Positions 1,963-46,505 are shown, numbered from the stretch's first letter. The stretch: 64,000 nt of DNA from an uncultured Candidatus Saccharibacteria bacterium (GCA_964399075.1 CAYNPK010000001.1:268400-332399); one strand, 5' to 3'. Program-made: numbers and translations. The notes: a model not told the origin generated them from the sequence alone.

Positions 1963-3105
1963 CTACCCCACTCCCACAAATTCGTTTTTGATATCATCGC
2001 GGTGGAAACCGCGGGAGCGACGACTCATCCCTGTTAAAATGCCGAGACCGAGAAACTCGGCTAAGAGATGCGAACCGCCATAGCTAACGAGAGGTAAATA
2101 CAAACCGGTAACCGGCAACAAACCCAAGTTCATGCCCACATTGATAATGAAGTGACTCATGAAGAAAATCGCCAAGCCGATGCCGAACAGGGCTTCGAAA
2201 TTAGTTTCCACCATCATCGCAATATGGATAATCCGCCAAACTACCACGCCAAACAAAGCCAGAAGTAGCGTCGCGCCAACGAGACCCCACTCCTCGGCAA
2301 AGGCGGCAAAAACGAAGTCGGTTTGATACTCCGGCAAGAATTTGAGGCGCGATTGGGTGCCTAAACCAACGCCCTTGCCTAACACTTGGCCGGAACCAAT
2401 GGCGATTGTTGACTGAAAAGCGTTATAGCCGGCGCCACGGATGTCAGATAGAGGATGAACGAAAGTGATAATCCGCGCCTTCTGATAGGGTTGGAAAACA
2501 AAGAGCCAAGCAATCAGAAAAGAGACTATTGCTATGCCAAAGACTAAGGCTAAGTGCTTCTTAGAAATGCCGGAAAAAATAATCATCCCCAGCCAGATAA
2601 GAAAGATAATGACCGCCGAACCGAAAGCCGGTTGGATTAAAATTAAAGCAAAAGGTACTAGAGCGTAAGCGCCGGAGATAAGAATATGACGAATGTTGGC
2701 AATCTCAATATGACGGCGTGATAAATATTTAGCCAGAATAAGAATCAGAATCAACTTCATAAAGTCCGCCGGCTGGAAGGCGATCCCCCCCAGAGAGAAC
2801 CAGCGCTCCGCGCCCTTGGCGCTCTGACCAAACCAATTAAGCATCAACACCAGACCAATGCCAGCGCTGTATAGAGTCACCAAGACGCCGGACCGACGCA
2901 GAAAGTGCCAGTCAAGACGACTGGCAATAAAAAAGACGACGAGAGAAATAGCAATCCACATTAATTGCCGATCGAAGTGATAACTATCCTCGGTGAAGGA
3001 GTTCATCGTCAACAAGCCCGCCGTCAATAAGGCCAAGGCGGAACCAACCAAGAGCCAGTCAAAGTGCCGACAGGCCTTGCTTAAATAAACGCGGGCTTGT
3101 TCCAT
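1963..3105 (-). CDS. ftsW: SEDS family peptidoglycan glycosyltransferase (FtsW/RodA)
   Basis: About 10 TM helices. Conserved FtsW/RodA block: GSGQVLGKGVGLGTQSRLKFLPEYQTDFVFAAFAEEWGLVG. Confidence 0.85.
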   Translation of the reverse strand: MEQARVYLSKACRHFDWLLVGSALALLTAGLLTMNSFTEDSYHFDRQLMWIAISLVVFFIASRLDWHFLRRSGVLVTLYSAGIGLVLMLNWFGQSAKGAERWFSLGGIAFQPADFMKLILILILAKYLSRRHIEIANIRHILISGAYALVPFALILIQPAFGSAVIIFLIWLGMIIFSGISKKHLALVFGIAIVSFLIAWLFVFQPYQKARIITFVHPLSDIRGAGYNAFQSTIAIGSGQVLGKGVGLGTQSRLKFLPEYQTDFVFAAFAEEWGLVGATLLLALFGVVVWRIIHIAMMVETNFEALFGIGLAIFFMSHFIINVGMNLGLLPVTGLYLPLVSYGGSHLLAEFLGLGILTGMSRRSRGFHRDDIKNEFVGVG

Positions 3106-3113
3106 AGAAAGAT

Positions 3114-3884
3114 TTAGGGAACTTGTCTTAGGTCAAAGTGAGGATAAAAGTCAAATAGTACCGGCTCGTCGGCAAAAGGCTCCGGCCAAGTGTAAGCGAT
3201 TTCCCTCGCCTCACCACGACCTAAGTTCTCAATCAAGGTGGAGCTAATACCGATGGCGTTATATTCTTGATTGGAGAGCGCAACTACTATTTGGATATTA
3301 GCTAAGTCAACGAAGGAGTCATTACGGACAACGGCCACCAAGCGCGGTGAGGGTAAATTAGTGAAAGATTGACGAGCGATGGCCAACTTAGGAGATTCTT
3401 TGTCAACCCTCTGCCACACCGGTGGCTCTGGCTCACCGGGCACAAAGATGGCGCGCGCCGGCAAACGAGAGCCAACCGCCAGACGGTGATCAAAAACAAT
3501 AAACCGCTCGCCCGGATTAAGGAAGACTTCTCCCTCGCGAAGAGTGATTAAAATATTGTCATCATCAAGAACTCGTAAGAAATATTTGAGACTGGCTAAA
3601 CTATGACCACGATTAGGATTCTCAATCAGAGTCGCCGCGTCATAACGATCAGCGCTGACTTTAAAAATTCTGGTCCAAATAACTTTGGGTGCTTGGACCT
3701 CCAGCTCACAGACCAGAGCACAAGGTCCGCCACAGTCGATACCCAACTCAGCTTGATTCTGAATCCCGTCAAAACAAGAAGGTTGAGGACGATAATAAAT
3801 AAGAATAATCGCCAAGACGGCAACTATAAGTAATACCGCCGCCAACAAATAAAGCAGTCTGCGTCTAGCGCTCCAACTAATCAT
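3114..3884 (-). CDS. Hypothetical membrane-anchored protein with an N-terminal TM and a Cys-containing extracytoplasmic domain. The ORF-track N-terminal extension up to 4046 is rejected because it overlaps 5S rRNA.
   Basis: The internal Met (MISWSARRRLLYLLAAVLLIVAVLAIILIYY) is the first start after the 5S gene. The hydrophobic anchor is followed by a soluble domain. Confidence 0.45.
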   Translation of the reverse strand: MISWSARRRLLYLLAAVLLIVAVLAIILIYYRPQPSCFDGIQNQAELGIDCGGPCALVCELEVQAPKVIWTRIFKVSADRYDAATLIENPNRGHSLASLKYFLRVLDDDNILITLREGEVFLNPGERFIVFDHRLAVGSRLPARAIFVPGEPEPPVWQRVDKESPKLAIARQSFTNLPSPRLVAVVRNDSFVDLANIQIVVALSNQEYNAIGISSTLIENLGRGEAREIAYTWPEPFADEPVLFDFYPHFDLRQVP

Positions 3885-4097: not shown

Positions 4098-7057
<2,960 letters not shown>

Positions 7058-28107: not shown

Positions 28108-31100
28108 TTAAACAAAAGTAAACTCTTTAGCATTAACAGCAAGCTTGAGAACATCAGCATGTTTAAGCACCAAATCTCGCCGAGCAAGCGACACAGGCAT
28201 AATAGCTAACTCTCCGGGCTTAAGACCTGATTTCTTGCGCCAATCTTGCAATTTGCGAATCAAATCACGCAACTCCCCCTCTTCTTTAAGTTCCGGAGTA
28301 AGTTCAAGATCTAACTCCACCTCGCTTACTAATTCTGGATCAGAAGAGATCTCTTTAACATTTACCTCATCTTTGATTAAGTCTAACAATTGACTATTAT
28401 TCTTAATTTCTAGCGACATCTTTTTAATTTTAAGCCTGGCTAAAGGCTGACGGACTTTAATCCCCGCCTTAGCTCGCGCCTCCAAACCCAAGGAGACAAT
28501 CCGCCTGACCTCAATCATATCTTCAAGCAACCCTTGATCGACAAGATCAACTACTCTAGGCCAAGAATCCAAATGAACGCTTTCTTGATCACCCTCGAGT
28601 TGACGATAGATTTCTTCAGCAACAAAGGGAGTAAACGGCGCCAAAACTCTAGCTAAGATATTAAACACCTGCGCCAAAGTCGCCGAAGCGTTGACTCTTT
28701 CTTCTTTTGCCTCTGGCTTAAAGCGGTCACGAGAACGACGAACATACCAGACTGAAAGATCTTCAATAAAAATATTAATCACCCGCAAGGCCTGATCAAG
28801 TTCATATCTATCCATCGCTTCAGTAACTTCGCCAACTAACTGATTTAAGCGAGCGATAATCCAACGATCTAAGACATGACGGCTAATTATTTTTTTAGCT
28901 ACTGATTGTTCAACATCAGCATAAGTTTGATAAAACAACCAAACATTATCTAAACGATTAATTACCTTGCGGTAAATCTCACCCACTCCTAATTCAGAAA
29001 AGCAGGCATCTTCCGCCTTCAAGAGAGGTGAACTTAGTAAATAAAATCGCAAAGCATCTGCACCGTATTGATTAAGGATCAAGAGCGGGTCAGGAAAATT
29101 ACCTTTGGATTTAGACATCTTCTGACCATCAGAGGCCAAAACACTGCCGGTAGTAACCACATTTTTAAAAGGAATTTTGTTAAATAAAATAGTCGCCACT
29201 ACGTGCATGTAGTAAAACCAAGTCCGAGTTTGAGCAATATATTCTGAGACAAAATCAGCCGGCACGCGACGTCTAGTCTGTTCTTCCCGCTCGAAGGGAT
29301 AATGTTCGGCCGCAAAAGGCATGGAACCAGACTCAAACCAGCAGTCAACCACCTCCGGAATACGAGACATTAGGCCACCACAGTTGCAAGTTAATTTGAT
29401 TTTATCAATATACGGCCGATGAAAATCCAATTCATAATCATGATTGTGAGGCAGAGGTTTGTAAGAGAAATCTTTAACCTCGCCAGTTAACAAGAAATCG
29501 TCGTGAGTTTCTTTAAAATTAGAAGCTTCCGTCACACCCAAACCCAAGGCGCCGGCAAACAGCATGGTAATCGGAGTCTCGTGAGAAATCAATAAAATAT
29601 TTTTGCCTTGATAGCGACCTTCTAGATCATCAATCAAATTCATCATCCGACGCTTGACCGTCATTAGATCTTCGCCATTCGGACAGCCCTTGGTGAACTT
29701 ATCAATCGGGTTAGAAAAATGATGATAATACTCCGCTACCGGTCGACCGTTGAAGTCGCCGAAGTCAACCTCACGCAAACGCTTATCGTAAATTACTGAA
29801 GCAGTAGGCAGAGACAGTTCTCGAGCAATCAGCTCGGTAGTCTCTCTCGTGCGGACAAAGTCTGAAGAAATAATTAAATCAATCTTAGCCTTTTCCAACT
29901 TAGACAACACAGCCTTAATTTGTTCTCGACCCTTATCCGTCAAGTGGTGAGGATTATCGACACGACTACTGACAATATCTTGCACGTTATGATCGGCTTC
30001 GCCATGACGCATTGCCAAATATTTATTACCAGCGCTAATCGCCTCTTCTTGGAGCTCTACTAGGGAGCTAATCACTTTAACAAACTGACACTGATCACAC
30101 TTCCAAATCGGCAAGGGTGTGGCCCAAAATCGATTACGAGAAATATTCCAATCTGGCGCCCCTGCCATACTCTTGGCAAAGCGACCAAACTTAAGATGTT
30201 CTGGAATCCAATTAATTTCCTGATTCAATTCTCGTAAACGAGGCTTAAGATCCTGAATTTTAATAAACCAAGATGGCACAGCGTAATAATAAAGCGGGGT
30301 CTCGCAACGATAACAATGCGGATAAGAGTGAACAATTTTTTGCTTATCGAATAAAATATCACGCTTGGCTAAAAATTTAATAATCTCAATATCCGTCACT
30401 TGATGATTGTCCTTAGGCTTAACTAGTTGACCGGCAAAATCTTTAACTTCCAGCTGGAAACGCCCGGTATGATCAACATGGACAACAATAGGCAAATTTT
30501 CCTTCTTAGCCAGCGCCATGTCGTCCTCACCAAAAGCCGGAGCGATGTGGACAATGCCGGTACCATCAACAGTATTAACAAAATCAGCGCCACAAACTCG
30601 ACCTTCAGTTAGATAATAAGCAAAAGGCGGTTTATATTTTTTACCAATTAAATCTCGCCCTAAAAATTCTTCCTCAATAGAATAATCTGATTTAATAGAA
30701 GCCAGGAGACGATCTTTAGCCAAGATAAAATATTCTTGGCCAATTTTAACTTTCACATAAGAAATCTGCGGACCAACAGCAACCGCCGTATTGCCTGGCA
30801 AAGTCCAAGGCGTTGTTGTCCACACCAGAAGATAAGTACCCGGCTCGTCAAGCAATTCAAATTTAACAAAAACAGAGATATCAGAAATGTCTTTGTAACT
30901 ATTATCCATCGCGATTTCCGCATTAGCCAAGGGCGTCTCGCAACGAGGACAATAGGGCAAAACTCTAGTGCCTTCGTATAATAAACCCAACTTATTCATC
31001 TCGCTCAAAGCCCACCACACTGACTCGATATAAGTGTTATCCATCGTCTTATAAGAACCAGCGAAGTCAACCCAACGTCCCATGCGCTCTATCACCTTCT

Positions 31101-31548
31101 GCCAATCTGCGACATAAGTGAGAACTTTGTCTCTAGCAGTTTGATTAAATTTATCAATCCCCAATTCTTCAATCTGCTTTTTGCCAGAAATCTTTAATTC
31201 CTTTTCCACGATATTCTCTACTGGCAAACCATGACAATCCCAGCCCCAACGACGCGCCACCCTCTTCCCTCGCATTGTTTGATAGCGGGGAATCACGTCT
31301 TTAATCGCGCTCGCCAAGATGTGGCCATAATGTGGTGTACCGGTAGCAAAAGGCGGTCCGTCGTAGAAGACAAATTCCTCGTCACTGACATTTTTAGCCA
31401 ATGACTTTTCAAAAATTTGCTGTTCTTGCCAAAACTTAAGAATTCTCTCTTCTCGCTTGGCCACTTCTGATTTTTCCGGCAAATTATTCGCCATAATTAA
31501 GTCTATCCTAGCATTTTTTGGCCAGAAAAAAAGCCCGCCGGAATACAC
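28108..31548 (-). CDS. ileS: Isoleucyl-tRNA synthetase carrying an about 195-aa histidine-phosphatase (PGAM-like) domain insertion. Likely true start at the internal Met MANNLPEK (31494).
   Basis: HIGH region PHYGHILAS and KMSKSKGN. Editing-domain blocks. The insertion …LAMRHGEADHN…LLISHETPI… lies between the KCDQC and CNCGG zinc-knuckle halves (about 29461..30048). Confidence 0.9.
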   Translation of the reverse strand: MYSGGLFFWPKNARIDLIMANNLPEKSEVAKREERILKFWQEQQIFEKSLAKNVSDEEFVFYDGPPFATGTPHYGHILASAIKDVIPRYQTMRGKRVARRWGWDCHGLPVENIVEKELKISGKKQIEELGIDKFNQTARDKVLTYVADWQKVIERMGRWVDFAGSYKTMDNTYIESVWWALSEMNKLGLLYEGTRVLPYCPRCETPLANAEIAMDNSYKDISDISVFVKFELLDEPGTYLLVWTTTPWTLPGNTAVAVGPQISYVKVKIGQEYFILAKDRLLASIKSDYSIEEEFLGRDLIGKKYKPPFAYYLTEGRVCGADFVNTVDGTGIVHIAPAFGEDDMALAKKENLPIVVHVDHTGRFQLEVKDFAGQLVKPKDNHQVTDIEIIKFLAKRDILFDKQKIVHSYPHCYRCETPLYYYAVPSWFIKIQDLKPRLRELNQEINWIPEHLKFGRFAKSMAGAPDWNISRNRFWATPLPIWKCDQCQFVKVISSLVELQEEAISAGNKYLAMRHGEADHNVQDIVSSRVDNPHHLTDKGREQIKAVLSKLEKAKIDLIISSDFVRTRETTELIARELSLPTASVIYDKRLREVDFGDFNGRPVAEYYHHFSNPIDKFTKGCPNGEDLMTVKRRMMNLIDDLEGRYQGKNILLISHETPITMLFAGALGLGVTEASNFKETHDDFLLTGEVKDFSYKPLPHNHDYELDFHRPYIDKIKLTCNCGGLMSRIPEVVDCWFESGSMPFAAEHYPFEREEQTRRRVPADFVSEYIAQTRTWFYYMHVVATILFNKIPFKNVVTTGSVLASDGQKMSKSKGNFPDPLLILNQYGADALRFYLLSSPLLKAEDACFSELGVGEIYRKVINRLDNVWLFYQTYADVEQSVAKKIISRHVLDRWIIARLNQLVGEVTEAMDRYELDQALRVINIFIEDLSVWYVRRSRDRFKPEAKEERVNASATLAQVFNILARVLAPFTPFVAEEIYRQLEGDQESVHLDSWPRVVDLVDQGLLEDMIEVRRIVSLGLEARAKAGIKVRQPLARLKIKKMSLEIKNNSQLLDLIKDEVNVKEISSDPELVSEVELDLELTPELKEEGELRDLIRKLQDWRKKSGLKPGELAIMPVSLARRDLVLKHADVLKLAVNAKEFTFV

Positions 31549-31944: not shown

Positions 31945-31985
31945 CAATAAAACAAGAAGAAAACCCCGGGCAAAATGACGCTCGG
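31945..31985 (-). terminator. Hairpin terminator downstream of DGR target 2
   Basis: AAACCCCG-(14 nt)-CGGGGTTT, then a T-rich run on the minus strand. Confidence 0.55.
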
Positions 31986-32038
31986 GGTTTCAAAAAACCT
32001 AAGGTTCTAAAAGTTTTAATGACCAAAGTTTCGAAGCG

Positions 32039-32486
32039 CTACTTGATGCGACGGCCAGCGAACCACCAGTCGCCATTCCAGCCATTGTCGCAGCAGTTGA
32101 CGTACACGTCGCGCTCGTCGTTCCAGTGGTTGAAGGCGATGTAGCACCATTCACCGCTTTCGTCCTTCCAGTGAGTGAAGTTGGGATACTGGTTGGCAAA
32201 ATCCGGGTCGGCCTCGTTCACCGCCGCCAGATCGTCGGGAAAGGCGGGGGCGAGACCCTGCAGTTCGCACTCATTCTCCAGATCGGCATCGGTCACGTAG
32301 CGGAAGAGGGGGGAAGAAAATGACCTCTGACTCTTCTCCAATACCACGGGGCATTTTAGCCACTACTTCGGGCTCGATGTACTGAACTCGACGAGTGGCA
32401 TCGAGTACCCCCTGGGAAGTGAGAGTGCGGTTGACTGGGACTCCCGAAACAACAACTAGACCGTTTCGTAGTTCCTGGATAATCAC
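32039..32486 (-). pseudogene. DGR target gene 2, a truncated paralog of target 1 carrying VR2. Interrupted by a +1 frameshift at a C6 tract (32308..32313). Putative GTG start after an AAAGGAGAG RBS.
   Basis: Two overlapping ORFs (32271..32549 and 32039..32347) together reproduce the target-1 C-terminal two-thirds. A tract one C shorter would fuse them in frame. Confidence 0.6.
32045..32138 (-). repeat. DGR variable repeat VR2, remote from the cassette
   Basis: 94-bp match to TR with 7-8 mismatches, all at TR adenines on the coding strand. The 3' block GGTTCGCTGGCCGTCGCA is identical. Confidence 0.8.
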
Positions 32487-32576
32487 AACACTCTCCTTTC
32501 GTTTTCTGGTTGTTTTCAGTTCCTGCGGGTTGGCACAAACCACACCCAAATCAAAGAACTCTGTTATCTGTTTAGT

Positions 32577-41881: not shown

Positions 41882-42097
41882 TCAGCGAAGTTTGGGTGCG
41901 ACGTCAGGATCGGGAGTTTTGATAGCAGTTGCATTCTCCCGTTTGATAGCATCGTACACCTCTTTTCTGTGGACAGAGATCTCGCCAGGAGCGGTAATCC
42001 CCAACCGCACTTTGTCACCACGGATGTCCACGATGGTGATCTCAATGTTATCACCAATCATGATCGTCTGATCCCGTTGCCGCGACAACACTAACAT
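41882..42097 (-). CDS. csrA: Carbon storage regulator CsrA (71 aa). The ORF-track upstream extension is rejected. AAGGAGG RBS 7 nt before ATG.
   Basis: [55 protein letters not shown] matches the CsrA fold signature (…MIGD…G.NAP….V.R.E). Confidence 0.8.
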
Positions 42098-42232
42098 GGC
42101 AAACCTCCTTATTTGCCAAACACCAAATGAAATGATCCAAATCGACGCCAATTTACTTATAACAAAAAACCAGCCGTTGCGCAAGTACACAACGGCTGGT
42201 GGGTAAGCAGGGGTAGGCCAACCCCTACTTAA

Positions 42233-42736: not shown

Positions 42737-43820
42737 TCAAAATGGGAAAGGCAATATTGAGAGCCTCCAGAACTTTAGTTTTGGCTTCCAGTAAAGGCAA
42801 CTTCATAGTAGCACCAACAGCAGCGCGATGACCACCGCCACCGACGAGAGTGACAAATTTAGTTAAGTCAAAAACCTGACCATCTCTAGTCCGAGCGCTT
42901 AATTTAACTTGACCAGCTTGCCACTCAAACAAAGTGATGCCAATGTCCCAACCTCGAACTGATTTTAAAATATTAGCAATAGACACACCCCGAGAGGCAT
43001 TCTCATCGAGGTGATGACTCGCTAATTCTTGATGAGACAAAGCCACGATAGCTACCCTATCGCCACGATAAGTTTGAATGGAACTAAACGCCAAACCCTG
43101 GAGATGGAGCGATTCAGGATTATTATTATTTTCTAACTTAAAAATCGTCTGATGATAATCAGGGACAATACTAGCCAAGCGCGAGGCTACCAGCAAAGTG
43201 TTGGGAGTGGTAGCCGGGTATTTGAATCCGCCAGTATCAGTATAAATTCCAAGAAATAAACAAGTGGCCATGTCAGGGGTAATTTCCGCTCCCCAAGCGA
43301 CAAATAATTCGTAGAGAATTTGAGCAGTCGCTGGATAATCAGCTAGAATTAAATTAATTTTAGCAAAAGGCGCATTCGTCAAATGATGATCAATCAAAAT
43401 AGTAGTCATCGTGTCGGGGAAATTTACTGGACCAAGATCAGTCACTCGTCTAATATCAGAAATATCTAACATGATAAACAAATCAAATTCACTTGGTTCA
43501 ATTTCCAAATAATTTTTAGCAACAATCACTTCCGCCCCGGGTAGAAACTCGGCGAAATCCGGCACTGGGGAATCACCCTTGATCACCATCACCTCCTTCC
43601 CCAACCCCCGCAAATAATGAAACATCGCCAGAGAGCTACCAACGCTATCAGGATCGGGGTGGGGGTGGAAGTGCAACAACACTCGCTTGGCGCGATTGAT
43701 AGCAGAGAAAATCTCTGTCGCTTTATCGGTAAATGAGTTGGGCATAATTAACTTAGAACAGTATACCACCACTTTGAGATCTGTGGATGATTTTCTGCTT
43801 AAGTTTCCAGCCATTACCAT
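42723..43820 (-). CDS. nrnA: DHH/DHHA1 phosphoesterase (NrnA-like). Likely start at the internal Met MPNSFTDK (about 43745), which removes the overlap with the RT gene.
   Basis: …TTILIDHHLT… (DHH) and …VGGGGHRAAVG… (DHHA1). Confidence 0.8.
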   Translation of the reverse strand: MVMAGNLSRKSSTDLKVVVYCSKLIMPNSFTDKATEIFSAINRAKRVLLHFHPHPDPDSVGSSLAMFHYLRGLGKEVMVIKGDSPVPDFAEFLPGAEVIVAKNYLEIEPSEFDLFIMLDISDIRRVTDLGPVNFPDTMTTILIDHHLTNAPFAKINLILADYPATAQILYELFVAWGAEITPDMATCLFLGIYTDTGGFKYPATTPNTLLVASRLASIVPDYHQTIFKLENNNNPESLHLQGLAFSSIQTYRGDRVAIVALSHQELASHHLDENASRGVSIANILKSVRGWDIGITLFEWQAGQVKLSARTRDGQVFDLTKFVTLVGGGGHRAAVGATMKLPLLEAKTKVLEALNIAFPILIDNR

Positions 43821-44784
43821 GTGTCAGCATCCCCAAATATGATTGCGCTACTTCCGGCCGGCTAGCGACCATTTCTAATCGTTTCAACATTCTTCTCTTT
43901 GTTACTGTTCGCAGAACACGATATCTAGGAAAATTTACCCAACCAAGAAAATCAACACCCGAAGCAATCGTTTTCACAAAGACTTTATTCGGATGTAATT
44001 CTAACTTCAATTTTTCTGCCAAAAAATCACTAATTTTAGGTGTCATTTCTAGTAAATAATCTTGATCACAATCGATAATTACAAAATCGTCAGCGTAACG
44101 AAGATAGTGTCTAGCTTTTAATTGATGCTTCATAAACTGATCTAGTTCACTCAGGTAAATATTAGCGAAAAGTTGCGAGGTGAGATTACCAAGGGGTAAA
44201 CCCTTCTTCGAGACACCAGAGTTAAAACTGCAAACTACTTTTTCAATCAAACAGAAGATATTTTTATCTAAGATTTCTCCTTTCAATAAACCAAGCAATA
44301 TTTCTTGATCAATACTAGCGAAAAATTTACGAATATCGCACTTCAATACCCACACTGCTTTAGTATTATTGCGACAAAGTTTGAAAGTTTTATCAGCAAA
44401 TTTTCTGACCGCTTTATGCGTACCTTTGCCATTTCGACAAGAATAAGAATCGTAAATAAATCGAGAGTGGAAATACGGATAGAGAATTCGATAGATAGCC
44501 CGGTGAACCACACGGTCGCGAACATTGGCTTTGTGAATCTGGCGAGGCTTGGGATCGGAAATACGGAAAGCGCGATAGGAAGAATGCTGATAGGTTTGTT
44601 GAGTTAACTCTTGGTTTAATGCTAGGATATTATCCGCCAGCCGAAGCGAGAATGTTTGCACCTCACGCTTGCCTCGTTTGCCACGCGCGAAATCTCGCCA
44701 AGCTAGAAATAAATTATCAACCGAAATAACATCGTTATACTTATGACTCAACCCTTTCCCTCTAAGACCCCCCCCCCAGCGCAA
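43753..44784 (-). CDS. DGR-type reverse transcriptase. TTG start. An alternative TTG at 44751 is preceded by an AGAGGG SD.
   Basis: RT motifs: N-terminal …DNLFLAWRDFARGKRGKREV…, …DSYSCRNGKGTHKA…, DGR-hallmark GLPLGNLTSQLFANIYL and LRYADDFVI (YxDD). Confidence 0.9.
   Translation of the reverse strand: MRWGGGLRGKGLSHKYNDVISVDNLFLAWRDFARGKRGKREVQTFSLRLADNILALNQELTQQTYQHSSYRAFRISDPKPRQIHKANVRDRVVHRAIYRILYPYFHSRFIYDSYSCRNGKGTHKAVRKFADKTFKLCRNNTKAVWVLKCDIRKFFASIDQEILLGLLKGEILDKNIFCLIEKVVCSFNSGVSKKGLPLGNLTSQLFANIYLSELDQFMKHQLKARHYLRYADDFVIIDCDQDYLLEMTPKISDFLAEKLKLELHPNKVFVKTIASGVDFLGWVNFPRYRVLRTVTKRRMLKRLEMVASRPEVAQSYLGMLTHGNGWKLKQKIIHRSQSGGILF
44768..44777 (-). repeat. Homopolymeric tract (C10 on plus, G10 on RT coding strand) at the RT 5' end
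   Basis: Seen directly. Encodes GGG in the long ORF, or lies just 5' of the SD if the downstream TTG start is used. Confidence 0.9.
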
Positions 44785-44786
44785 AT

Positions 44787-45173
44787 TTGAGCATCATCCA
44801 ACGACTTTTGCAAACTTATTGTTTGTGGCAGGAATTCGTTAAACATTTCCAAAAGACTAGCAAATATTCTCTGGGGATCAAAATTGATCAATTATTAGTG
44901 GAAGTTTTGGAATTAACCAGCGCGGCCAGCTTCTCGCCCAAAGAAGAAAAACTACCCTATGTGAAGCGCGCGATTATTAAATTAGACACTCTTAAATTTC
45001 TACTTCAAGTGGCCTGGGAAACAGGGTCATTGAACGAGAAGAGGTTCGCGTCCTTGTCACAACCACTAGCCGAGATTGGGAAGATGTTAGGTGGATGGCG
45101 CGGGCAACTCTTGAGACAGCTACCAATTACATCAAAACAAAACTCTCCCAGCATGAAGCCGAGAGAGAAATAA
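44787..45173 (+). CDS. Avd-like four-helix-bundle accessory protein (TIGR02436-like). Encoded on the opposite strand to the RT and targets.
   Basis: C-terminal half …LDTLKFLLQVAWETGSLNEKRFASLSQPLAEIGKMLGGW… fits the Avd consensus (…eigkmLngl…). N-terminal half is degenerate. TTG start. Confidence 0.5.
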   Translation: MSIIQRLLQTYCLWQEFVKHFQKTSKYSLGIKIDQLLVEVLELTSAASFSPKEEKLPYVKRAIIKLDTLKFLLQVAWETGSLNEKRFASLSQPLAEIGKMLGGWRGQLLRQLPITSKQNSPSMKPREK

Positions 45174-45178
45174 AGCAA

Positions 45179-45272
45179 GTTGCGACGGCCAGCGAACCAC
45201 CAGTTGTCATTCCAGTCATTGTCGTTGCAGTTGACGTTCACGTTGCGCTCGTCGTTCCAGTGGTTGAAGGCG
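45179..45272 (-). repeat. DGR template repeat (TR). Non-coding; the 78-aa ORF 45005..45241 is its spurious translation.
   Basis: The coding-strand sense is AAC-rich (…AAC GTG AAC GTC AAC TGC AAC GAC AAT GAC TGG AAT GAC AAC…). It is a 94-bp near-identical copy of VR1 and VR2. Confidence 0.85.
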
Positions 45273-45533
45273 TATTGTATAAAGTACCGCCCAAGTCATC
45301 ACCTCTTGTCGCCAAAACCGGGCGATTTGAGATTGCATATTATCCGGCATCTCCAATGCCTTAGCACTCTATACCAAGTAGCTTCATTTTTTATTGAAGT
45401 GTCTTCGCAAGCCCTCCACCAGCAATCGTAATTGCCAGAGTTCTCAACTTGCGGATACTGGATTCGGTGGCGAAAGTCGTAACTATTCGCATATTCACCG
45501 ACTACCGCAACCATCCTAGCACAAACGAAAAGG

Positions 45534-45576
45534 GCCCCGCATCTCATCTGTGGTTAGACAGAAAAATGCGGGGCCC
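45534..45576 (-). terminator. Rho-independent terminator downstream of target 1
   Basis: GGGCCCCGCAT-(loop)-ATGCGGGGCCC 11-bp stem, then TTTTCGTTT on the minus strand. Confidence 0.65.
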
Positions 45577-45629
45577 AAGGACTAAGGTCAAAGGATCTAA
45601 AAGATCCAATGGCCAAAGTCCACAAAGAA

Positions 45630-46247
45630 CTACTTGCGACGGCCAGCGAACCACCAGCTGTCATTCCAGTCATTGTCGTTGCAGTAGACGTTCACGTTGC
45701 GCTCGTCGTTCCAGTGGTTGAAGGCGATAAAACGCCACTTGCCATCCTCGCCCTTCCAGTGGGTACCGTTCGGTTTCTCCTTCGCGAAATTGGGATCGGC
45801 GGCATTGACGGCCGCCAAATCGTCTGGGAAAGCGGGTACGAGACCGCGGAGATCAAATTCCTTCTCGAGCTCATCGTCGCTCACGTAACGGCCGAGGTGG
45901 AAGAAGAAAACCCCCGCCTCTTCGCCGGTGCCCCTGGGCATGGAATCCACCACCTCGCTGTCGGTATACTGCCTTCTGCCGGTGGCGTCGAGTACCTCCT
46001 GGGGAGTGAGGCTACGGTTAATCGGGACGCGACGGATGATGAGGTTGCTCTGGACCTCCACCCGCCGACGAAACTCCTGGACCACTGCGTCAGCGAACTC
46101 GGGCTGTCCGAGCACTGTCTGCACCGCCACTGACTCGAACTCTTTGCCGTGCTTTTCGAGCCACACTCGGCAATTGTTCAGAAATTTGTCGATCTGACCG
46201 GCAGTCGTGGTTTTGGACTCTCTGGATGGGGTCATGGATTTCGCCAT
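45630..46247 (-). CDS. DGR target protein 1 (205 aa). No signal peptide or TM. The ORF-track start at 46307 is rejected as translated 5' UTR.
   Basis: AAAGGAGGA RBS 6 nt before ATGGCGAAATCC (MAKSMTPS…). C-terminus …FNHWNDERNVNVYCNDNDWNDSWWFAGRRK is encoded by VR1. Confidence 0.7.
   Translation of the reverse strand: MAKSMTPSRESKTTTAGQIDKFLNNCRVWLEKHGKEFESVAVQTVLGQPEFADAVVQEFRRRVEVQSNLIIRRVPINRSLTPQEVLDATGRRQYTDSEVVDSMPRGTGEEAGVFFFHLGRYVSDDELEKEFDLRGLVPAFPDDLAAVNAADPNFAKEKPNGTHWKGEDGKWRFIAFNHWNDERNVNVYCNDNDWNDSWWFAGRRK
45634..45726 (-). repeat. DGR variable repeat VR1, covering the last about 30 codons of target 1
   Basis: Differs from TR at only two positions, both TR adenines on the coding strand. 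Ends 1 nt before the stop codon. Confidence 0.85.
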
Positions 46248-46335
46248 GGCGTCATCCTCCTTTCGTTTTCTGGTCGTTTCTAGTTCCCGCGGGTTGGCAC
46301 TCGCCAATCCAAATCAAAGAACAGGTACTCTCCTT

Positions 46336-46364
46336 AGTATATACTATTGGGAAGAGGTTGTCAA
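46336..46364 (-). promoter_or_regulatory. Near-consensus sigma70 promoter for target 1 (TTGACA-17-TATACT)
   Basis: The minus strand reads cTTGACAacctcttcccaatagtaTATACTaagg. Confidence 0.55.
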
Positions 46365-46505
46365 GAGCAGATAACCAAAACTAAAATAAGCCTTAAAACA
46401 AGGCTAGATTCGATAAATATGACTATATTGTATCAAACAAAAACCCCCCTGCCACCAGCAGAGGGGTGAGGGCCCGAGGTGTTCTGTAGGATCACCTTCT
46501 TTCTG

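Follow-up and report, generated by a model that had tools for sequence, protein, structure and literature searches.

Diversity-generating retroelements (DGRs) of the Candidate Phyla Radiation (CPR, Patescibacteria) are the least understood group of DGRs. The gene order TR-(avd)-RT, in which TR is the template repeat, avd the accessory gene and RT the reverse transcriptase gene, was defined as architecture B3 by Wu et al. 2018 (PMC5758913) and reported for 90% of CPR DGRs. The targets of CPR "DGR clade 2" typically lack a recognisable transmembrane (TM) or other conserved domain (Roux et al. 2021, PMC8144416), and according to the same source it is still open whether these small, domain-less proteins are genuinely non-membrane-bound. 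As to the RNA, Handa et al. (bioRxiv 10.1101/2023.10.23.563531) predicted Avd-binding stem-loops just 3′ of the TR, together with duplexes bracketing the TR, in 207 of 278 Avd-containing DGRs, CPR elements included; only 40 nucleotides (nt) upstream of the TR were examined in that work. Here we describe a DGR found in a stretch of 64,000 nt from an uncultured Candidatus Saccharibacteria bacterium (GCA_964399075.1 CAYNPK010000001.1:268400-332399), referred to below as the window. We hold with high confidence that it is a chromosomal DGR of the CPR type with the architecture target-TR-(avd)-RT.

The element is an ordinary DGR for its host group, one more beside many already catalogued. The parts of the cassette, the restriction of mutations to adenines, the fold of the target, and the structure of the TR-containing RNA with its conservation are all directly supported by the data presented here. 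We could not find described elsewhere the delimited RNA scaffold, the motif array in the target flank or the compositional anomaly of the target family. The cassette is now delimited in full, from promoter, structured RNA, TR and terminator through Avd and RT to one intact and one apparently decayed target.

Organization of the cassette and its two proteins

The initial annotation, made from the sequence alone, had read this locus as a complete DGR, and that is what the analysis returned: a DGR-like RT, Avd, mismatches between TR and variable repeats (VRs) that are restricted to adenines, and a target whose modelled end is C-type-lectin-like. The core consists of the TR (45272 to 45180, minus strand), avd (44787–45173, plus strand) and the RT gene (44784 to 43753, minus strand), in the order that defines B3. 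The same arrangement recurs elsewhere, with avd immediately upstream of the RT gene and on the opposite strand in 24 RT-related loci, and a TR with adenine-restricted mismatches just past the avd position in 20 RT-related CPR loci. In most of those 20 the VR follows 410–520 nt further upstream on the RT strand, and in five the VRs are remote and inverted. The same cassette also adjoins homologues of the window target.

The RT gene (43753–44784, minus strand) encodes 343 residues from a TTG codon, with an alternative TTG start at codon 12. As first annotated at these coordinates, its product carries FARGKRGKREV, GLPLGNLTSQ and YADD (here RYADD), and it matches the Pfam model RVT_1 (E=1e-22). 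Group II intron and retron RTs have a QGxxxSP-type motif where DGR RTs have [I/L/V]GxxxSQ, and the LGNLTSQ of the window RT is of the DGR type, [I/L]GxxxSQ. The best match among all PDB sequences was chain 8ub7_A (328 residues, nine entries; 150 bits, E=6e-43, over RT residues 16–303), which from its length and sequence we take to be the Bordetella phage RT (bRT), the entry itself being named only "Reverse transcriptase". In this alignment ...GIPIGSLTSQLFANVY... stands opposite ...GLPLGNLTSQLFANIY... of the window RT, and the next matches, group II intron-like and retron-type RTs, reached at most 72 bits. At the positions aligned to bRT Arg74 and Ile181, which reportedly influence adenine mutagenesis, the window RT has Arg and Leu. 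An NCBIfam scan of the RT returned no DGR RT model, the top model being a group II intron RT/maturase at 147 bits against a cut-off of 300 bits; this outcome says nothing against DGR membership. RT relatives at 44–62% identity come mainly from metagenome-assembled genomes (MAGs) with CPR labels (Adlerbacteria, Yanofskybacteria, Daviesbacteria, Nomurabacteria and others), and more distant ones, at 36–39%, from Woesearchaeota, Methanosarcinaceae and one cyanobacterial MAG.

The avd gene (44787–45173, plus strand) encodes 128 residues, is divergent from the RT gene, an orientation that had gone unmentioned, and lies antisense to the TR RNA. That it is Avd-like was correctly recognised, since its product scores 44.5 bits against Pfam bAvd, above the 40-bit gathering cut-off; a search of PDB sequences gave no match. 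The RT and avd start codons lie 2 nt apart on opposite strands, so that the promoters of the two genes must lie inside each other's coding regions. Near these divergent starts, a run of ten C (ten G on the minus strand) at 44768–44777 occupies part of the first six codons of the annotated RT open reading frame (ORF). Such a homopolymer could slip, switching RT expression or frame, and the alternative TTG at codon 12 lies downstream of the run.

Template and variable repeats

The TR (45180–45272, minus strand) encodes AFNHWNDERNVNVNCNDNDWNDNWWFAGRR and contains 26 adenines and nine AAC/AAT codons, in keeping with the AAC richness noted at the outset; the repeat itself was rightly placed, its exact length being 93 nt rather than the 94 bp (45179–45272) first given. 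VR1 (45634–45726, minus strand), a 93-nt repeat 98% identical to the TR, encodes the last 30 residues of a 205-residue ORF, as both the ORF and the repeat alignment bear out, and the alignment of the target family is hypervariable at exactly those positions. In the minus-strand sense, which is that of RT and target, the two mismatches are A to T at 45232 and A to G at 45204. Both thus fall at TR adenines, as initially reported, and two out of two is weak evidence if taken alone (p ~0.08).

A repeat scan of the whole window revealed exactly one further copy, VR2 (32046–32138, minus strand), on the same strand and 13.5 kb from the cassette. VR2 differs from the TR at seven core positions and one position at the 3′ edge, all of them at TR adenines and all nonsynonymous (N to D, N to Y, N to C, D to G, D to G and N to D). 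When the mismatches among TR, VR1 and VR2 were tabulated by TR base, every one was at an adenine; nine of nine, given that adenine makes up 26 of the 93 TR positions (28%), corresponds to p ~1e-5. In addition, the 24 adenines of the TR coding part lie at codon position 1 (9) or position 2 (15) and never at position 3, and its 15 adenine-containing codons give ~1e14 theoretical protein variants with no reachable stop. The same bias holds in homologous cassettes elsewhere, in which 575 of 633 mismatches over 43 TR/VR pairs are at TR adenines. A GC-rich stretch, GGTTCGCTGGCCGTCGC, closes both repeats, and the TR/VR homology ends after CGCAA; beyond this point the 3′ flanks of VR1 and VR2 are alike and the TR flank is different from both.

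Target genes

Target gene 1 (45630–46247, minus strand; 205 residues), which ends in VR1, is preceded by a near-consensus promoter, TTGACA-17-TATACT (46336–46364, minus strand), and by AAGGAGG ahead of the ATG, a strong ribosome-binding site. The small hairpin and the terminator described after VR1 are both present, the latter as an 11-bp GC-rich stem followed by a T run (45529–45577, minus strand). Homologues of the target share a TTGACA / TGTATAAT-like promoter as well as the GGAGGATGACGCCATG start region. The latter, located at 46245–46262 in the window, is nucleotide-identical across species; it includes, 8 nt ahead of the target start codon, another ATG in a different frame, which opens a tiny overlapping ORF that in the window reads MTPWRNP before its stop. 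The 5′ leader was considered as a regulatory RNA and discarded, as its ~75 nt are common to the two window paralogues only and across species nothing but the promoter and GGAGGATGACGCCATG is conserved.

The 205-residue protein has no match in Pfam or NCBIfam. At least 208 relatives were found at 48–63% identity, all of about 200 residues and all annotated as hypothetical, the named ones belonging to Patescibacteria, and a metagenome scan confirmed 341 additional target-encoding loci. Where a locus is long enough to judge, family members are found either beside an RT/avd cassette or far from one, surrounded by unrelated housekeeping genes. Conservation along the family alignment is good up to the last ~30 residues, in which F.RW.G.R.V.V.R.D.DW.D.WWFAGVRK alternates with hypervariable positions. 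An AlphaFold2 model built from 48 sequences (pLDDT 90.8, pTM 0.75) has three N-terminal helices (residues 16–67) followed by an alpha/beta domain, and the protein can be modelled confidently as a helical N-terminal domain joined to a minimal C-type-lectin fold on which the variable residues are displayed, the structure prediction ending in the kind of domain that the annotation had proposed to look for. A Foldseek search with the model yielded the same kind of match, without significance.

A Kyte-Doolittle scan of the target found no 19-residue window above 0.63, and the N-terminus is hydrophilic; the protein therefore has neither a TM segment nor a classical export signal, and would be cytoplasmic. 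The initial annotation correctly reported both this lack of signal peptide and TM segment and the position of the cassette between nrnA and the GNAT/tRNA-His region, but considered the two features unusual. Since the former is typical of CPR targets (PMC8144416) and the layout is that of B3 (PMC5758913), both are the published CPR norm, and neither is unusual.

Target 2 (32039–32500, minus strand), which ends in VR2, is a paralogue without the N-terminal helical domain, its reading frame broken by a +1 frameshift in a run of six C (32308–32313). Promoter and leader are kept as in target 1, part of the inverted repeat downstream is missing, and removal of one C from the run restores a frame of 148 residues. 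Target 2 is either a decaying paralogue or a gene with a homopolymer sequencing error; as for the frameshift itself, a genuine lesion of a pseudogene, a switch prone to slippage and a sequencing error are all conceivable.

Structure of the TR-containing RNA

About 230 nt upstream of the TR are strongly conserved across the family. A putative extended −10 promoter of the TR RNA, TGcTAGGAT (45513–45521, minus strand), is suggested by the sequence: a TGnTAnnnT element occurs directly after the target terminator, and at the same place in most family loci displayed. Downstream of it, RNAalifold applied to 33 sequences gave a structured 5′ domain (45277–45499, minus strand) of eight helices and 51 pairs, 44 of which show compensatory changes, and the window sequence fits 49 of the 51 consensus pairs. 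Paired cells amounted to 94.1%, compared with 78.3% in shuffled alignments (none of 500 reached the observed value) and 37–48% with slid partners; the covariation score was 0.619, compared with 0.303 and 0.11–0.19, respectively. A 12-bp long-range helix (45374–45363 with 45288–45277) stops 5 nt short of the TR, and CUUGG, the sole invariant run of the domain, stands unpaired immediately ahead of this helix.

For the 3′ half of this 5′ domain, a covariance model with 104 positions and 22 pairs gave a single match in the window, at 45272–45386 with 86 bits. At E<=1e-3 it also matched 16 related loci that were not used for training (L001–L008, L010, L011, L015, L016, L020, L021, L024 and L033), many of which have non-homologous targets. 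All 16 matches are on the RT strand, and 15 end a few nt from the start of the mapped TR. At L024 the match lies apart from the mapped TR/VR pair: the 5′ domain (2974–3077, 105.6 bits) and avd (3213–3569) are situated ~2.4 kb upstream of the RT gene, and an adenine-biased repeat pair occurs at 5076–5189 and 5497–5610, so that this locus may be a rearranged or double cassette. Rfam 15 reported nothing over the cassette region of the window except tRNA-His, and in particular no intron RNA and no retron msr/msd. For the 5′ RNA domain, the searchable literature returned only work on Bordetella.

On the other side of the TR, 13 nt from its 3′ end and in the antisense of the avd 3′ end, lies a 10-bp stem-loop with a U tract (UUUUGUUUUG; 45133–45167, minus strand). 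It was a match in a terminator scan, a hairpin with a U tract occurs at the same place in most related loci, and in 32 family sequences seven of its eight consensus pairs show compensatory changes. It is a candidate for the stem-loop bound by Avd, for the terminator of the TR RNA, or for both; as a terminator, it may also stop transcripts from running on into antisense avd.

A conserved AAAUGAAG in the 5′ domain (45389–45381) is complementary to CUUCAUUU directly 3′ of the TR (45176–45168). The two would form a TR-bracketing duplex, with AAATGAAGC as the putative 5′ strand (45381–45389, minus strand) and GCTTTATTT, which overlaps the avd stop codon, as the putative 3′ strand (45168–45176, minus strand). 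At the terminal pair of this duplex, a U is found opposite in five of six GAAA variants (Fisher p=4e-4, with phylogeny ignored), and at the G5:C4 pair a U is opposite in all three G to A variants; in the window the duplex has one more G:C pair. A global RNAduplex comparison of the TR flanks was no better than shuffles, and the AAAUGAAG/CUUCAUUU duplex was spotted by eye and checked separately. For a further duplex, between GGTGGTGG and CCAACCACC (antisense of avd MLGGW), there is a suggestive association of T:A with C:G, with exceptions, and avd coding constrains the sequence there. Cumulatively, the TR RNA would be a discrete molecule of ~370 nt in which the TR is a large loop shut by a duplex, and most of the protein-binding scaffold would lie 5′ of the TR, unlike in the Bordetella element, where it lies 3′.

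A CTTNG motif array in the VR flank

The 3′ flank of VR1 (45570–45629, minus strand) holds an array of CTTNG motifs and forms a long imperfect hairpin that includes GGATCTTTTAGATCC at 45593–45607. Directly after the target stop codon, 60-nt flanks from 68 non-redundant family loci contain a mean of 3.1 CTTNG, compared with 0.41 after mononucleotide shuffling (maximum 0.68 in 200 shuffles), and the CTT-to-CTT spacing in the family flanks peaks at 7–8 nt. On neither strand of the window is CTTNG denser than in the VR1 flank, which one coding region equals; the dense spot at 2489–2569 is inside a membrane-protein ORF and looks like chance. Moreover, in related CPR loci with non-homologous targets, inverted remote VRs included, the CTTNG density of 16 of 25 VR flanks is in the top 0.75% of the locus. 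Attempts to derive a consensus hairpin for the VR 3′ flank failed, RNAalifold on a MAFFT alignment giving no structure; the signal in this flank is the direct motif array and not a helix with covariation. We propose that the array may be this clade's counterpart of the Bordetella initiation of mutagenic homing (IMH)-distal/cruciform element.

Arrays of this kind were seen in the window at 45570–45629 and 31979–32038 (both minus strand), and in the VR flanks of L001–L009, L016, L018, L022, L027 and L036–L121. No array was found 3′ of the TR, and none in the archaeal locus L029. This locus, from a Woesearchaeota MAG with an RT 39% identical to that of the window, has a 93-nt TR (5831–5923), three VRs with ten adenine differences each, and upstream of the TR a AAAATTCA...GTGG motif in common. 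The arrays in the VR flanks are rich in GGA-containing motifs (TTGGA), and a CsrA gene (41882–42100, minus strand) is located 1.6 kb downstream of the RT gene.

Base composition of the target family

The two targets are the ORFs with the highest GC content at third codon positions (GC3) in the window, 0.74–0.77 against a median of 0.405, the RT gene having 0.35. Target GC is 0.58 (GC3 0.75) against 0.44 for the window overall, and the composition of RT and avd is host-like. In all 84 homologous loci with enough flank the target exceeds its flanks in GC, typically 0.55–0.63 against 0.32–0.50. The shift is one from T to C at third positions. Adenine avoidance was rejected as its cause because third positions are depleted in A and T both and enriched in C, and translational selection because the genes of the window for the ribosomal proteins L10 and L7/L12 have GC3 of 0.48–0.51 and C3 (C at third positions) of 0.14–0.16, compared with 0.74–0.77 and 0.43–0.49 in the targets. 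Nor is it a general property of B3 targets, as no consistent GC excess exists among the non-homologous targets of L001–L026.

Host and genomic context

The nearest named relatives of the ArgRS encoded in the window are from the Patescibacteria group, the Parcubacteria group, Candidatus Paceibacterota and Zambryskibacteria (best non-self identity 67%). From these neighbours the host is assigned to Patescibacteria (CPR), and the relatives of RT and target bear the same labels. Directly downstream of the RT gene is a gene for a DHH/DHHA1 (NrnA-like) phosphoesterase, followed by CsrA, and upstream of target 1 are GNAT, tRNA-His and cobalamin adenosyltransferase genes; VR2 is flanked by IleRS and ArgRS. 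A search for the target family in IMG/VR (2.9 million viral contigs) gave no confirmed match. These housekeeping flanks, together with the lack of a confirmed viral match, argue that the element is cellular and chromosomal. Both targets are co-directional with the replication direction that GC skew implies, as is favourable for retrohoming in E. coli (PMC12875486). The IleRS gene (28108–31548, minus strand; 1146 residues) contains a complete His_Phos_1 domain (PGAM-like, RHGE motif) at residues 513–679, an insertion at ~29512–30012; as this insert sits inside the class I catalytic domain, Pfam matches that domain in two stretches.

Discussion

An ordinary segmental duplication beside an unrelated group II intron or retron RT is one rival reading, and the NCBIfam result, in which a group II RT/maturase model came out on top (147 bits against a 300-bit cut-off) and no DGR RT model appeared, might be cited in its favour. 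We consider this negligible, because all 9–10 mismatches are at adenines (p ~1e-5), every coding adenine of the TR is at codon position 1 or 2, the RT scores twice as high against the bRT-like PDB chain as against any group II or retron RT, Avd adjoins the RT, Rfam detects neither intron RNA nor retron msr/msd in the region, and the architecture with its adenine-restricted mismatches recurs in dozens of loci. It is also very improbable that the element belongs to a phage or other mobile element and, like that of Bordetella phage BPP-1, serves tropism switching through the diversification of a receptor-binding protein, despite the fact that DGRs were first found in phages and that the target genes are compositional outliers (58% vs 44% GC). 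No phage genes lie beside the cassette, its neighbours being the DHH phosphoesterase, CsrA, GNAT and tRNA-His, with ArgRS and IleRS at VR2; RT and avd have host-like composition; homologous cassettes sit among differing housekeeping genes in different CPR genomes; the 205-residue target has no tail-fibre-like region; and the 2.9 million IMG/VR contigs gave no confirmed match to its family.

Several observations weigh against the interpretation as a CPR-type DGR, above all against its present activity. VR1 is changed at only two of 26 adenines, and 41 full-length TR/VR pairs of homologous cassettes differ at 7–19; at a probability of 0.5 for the change of each adenine, two or fewer changes would be expected with P = 5e-6, and VR1 does not have the appearance expected after a recent, typical round of mutagenic homing. 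The sole well-diversified repeat, VR2, sits in a gene that appears broken. The promoters of RT and avd would have to be placed within each other's coding regions, and the NCBIfam model DivGenRetAVD, the best and sole match of Avd in that database, scores 60 bits, below its cut-off of 80 bits. With VR1 so atypically near to the TR, current activity is no more than a possibility. Possible causes of the near-identity are a non-mutagenic reset by recombination with the TR, the collapsed assembly of a heterogeneous VR, or an event of low mutagenesis. It is conceivable, if rather doubtful, that this is a real DGR now silent or decaying, with VR1 reset near the TR by recombination or gene conversion with the TR or by non-mutagenic homing, and VR2 a fossil in a pseudogene. 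The outlying A-site changes of VR1 (two of 26, against 7–19 in homologous cassettes) fit this account, as does target 2, truncated, frameshifted and with a degraded inverted repeat in its VR flank. All protein and RNA parts look intact, however: the RT and avd ORFs are uninterrupted with all motifs kept, the TR RNA retains 49 of 51 consensus pairs and its 3′ stem-loop, target 1 retains promoter, ribosome-binding site, VR flank array and terminator, and both VR1-TR differences are still at adenines. Less likely again is an assembly artefact, in which the uniform, full-coverage k-mers of the TR were threaded into a heterogeneous VR1 and the C6 frameshift of target 2 is a homopolymer error. The window is part of a 353-kb contig with protein homologues that stem almost entirely from metagenomes and MAGs, VR1 is an extreme outlier within its family, and the frameshift consists of a single additional C in a homopolymer, all of which would suit such an origin. 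Against it, VR1 kept two A-site differences and its flanks join cleanly, and VR2, with the same TR k-mers, was assembled with 7–8 differences.

We thus favour the interpretation of the locus as a chromosomal CPR DGR, and picture its operation from sequence as follows. Where the RNA begins and ends, what its domains do, whether the CTTNG array marks the target site, whether the target is cytoplasmic and whether the element is active at present are all to be read conditionally. A discrete RNA of ~370 nt would be transcribed from the minus strand, starting near 45505 and ending near 45133, and made up, in order, of the structured 5′ domain (~225 nt), the TR (93 nt) and a short tail bearing the stem-loop and U tract. 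RT and Avd would assemble on this RNA and copy the TR into complementary DNA (cDNA), misincorporating opposite the 26 template adenines, and the cDNA would then replace the homologous VR with which the target gene ends. In this way up to 15 codons (~1e14 possible proteins) could be recoded on what would be the ligand-binding face of a small C-type-lectin-fold protein, which has no export signal and is probably expressed from the near-consensus promoter and ribosome-binding site. Past diversification from the same TR would also account for the truncated, frameshifted paralogue 13.5 kb away. Only tentatively do we join the peculiar features into one picture, an RNA scaffold of ~370 nt unlike that of Bordetella, a CTTNG target signal arrayed at 7–8-nt spacing on the sense strand, and an abundant, non-exported lectin-fold binder held to ~58–60% GC regardless of host composition. 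If this combination holds, the 5′ scaffold may be closed on the short 3′ tail by the AAAUGAAG/CUUCAUUU duplex, and one surface, of RT or of the Avd pentamer, could read one and the same motif, as CUUGG in the RNA and as CTTNG in the target while this is the single-stranded template of the lagging strand. The 5′ RNA domain and the CTTNG arrays are testable candidates for what governs, in this clade, the synthesis of cDNA and the recognition of targets, and may be used as search handles for TRs and remote targets in metagenomes.

Comparison with known DGRs

TvpA of Treponema denticola and LdtA of Legionella are lipoproteins or surface proteins with export signals. Compared with these and with archaeal AvpA, the window target is without an export signal, and its N-terminal domain, of three helices, is a different one; the target matches neither FGE-sulfatase nor DUF1566 in Pfam, and sequence similarity to TvpA, LdtA or AvpA was undetectable. 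In BPP-1, about 20 nt upstream and a spacer of about 140 nt downstream of the TR are reportedly essential. RNA segments both upstream and downstream of the TR belong to the published description of that system. The emphasis is opposite in the window element, with ~225 nt of structured RNA 5′ of the TR and only ~45 nt 3′ of it before the terminator-like hairpin. Further, BPP-1 (mtd-avd-TR-brt) is phage-borne, with a GC-rich 8-bp hairpin in the VR flank and the trimeric tip of a tail fibre as target, whereas the window element is chromosomal, with avd inverted between TR and RT, CTTNG arrays in the VR flank and a small target without signal sequence.

The closest systems are the CPR B3 DGRs. The TR of the window is short in comparison, 93 nt vs 104–144 nt in the closest relatives of the RT with mapped TR/VR pairs, and its ~205-residue target family has no Pfam or NCBIfam model and might equal one of the "UVR1-6" classes of Wu et al. 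In gene order, inverted avd, host group, domain-less target, C-terminal VR and CPR-restricted RT relatives the element is the same as the CPR B3 DGRs, and nothing essential differs.

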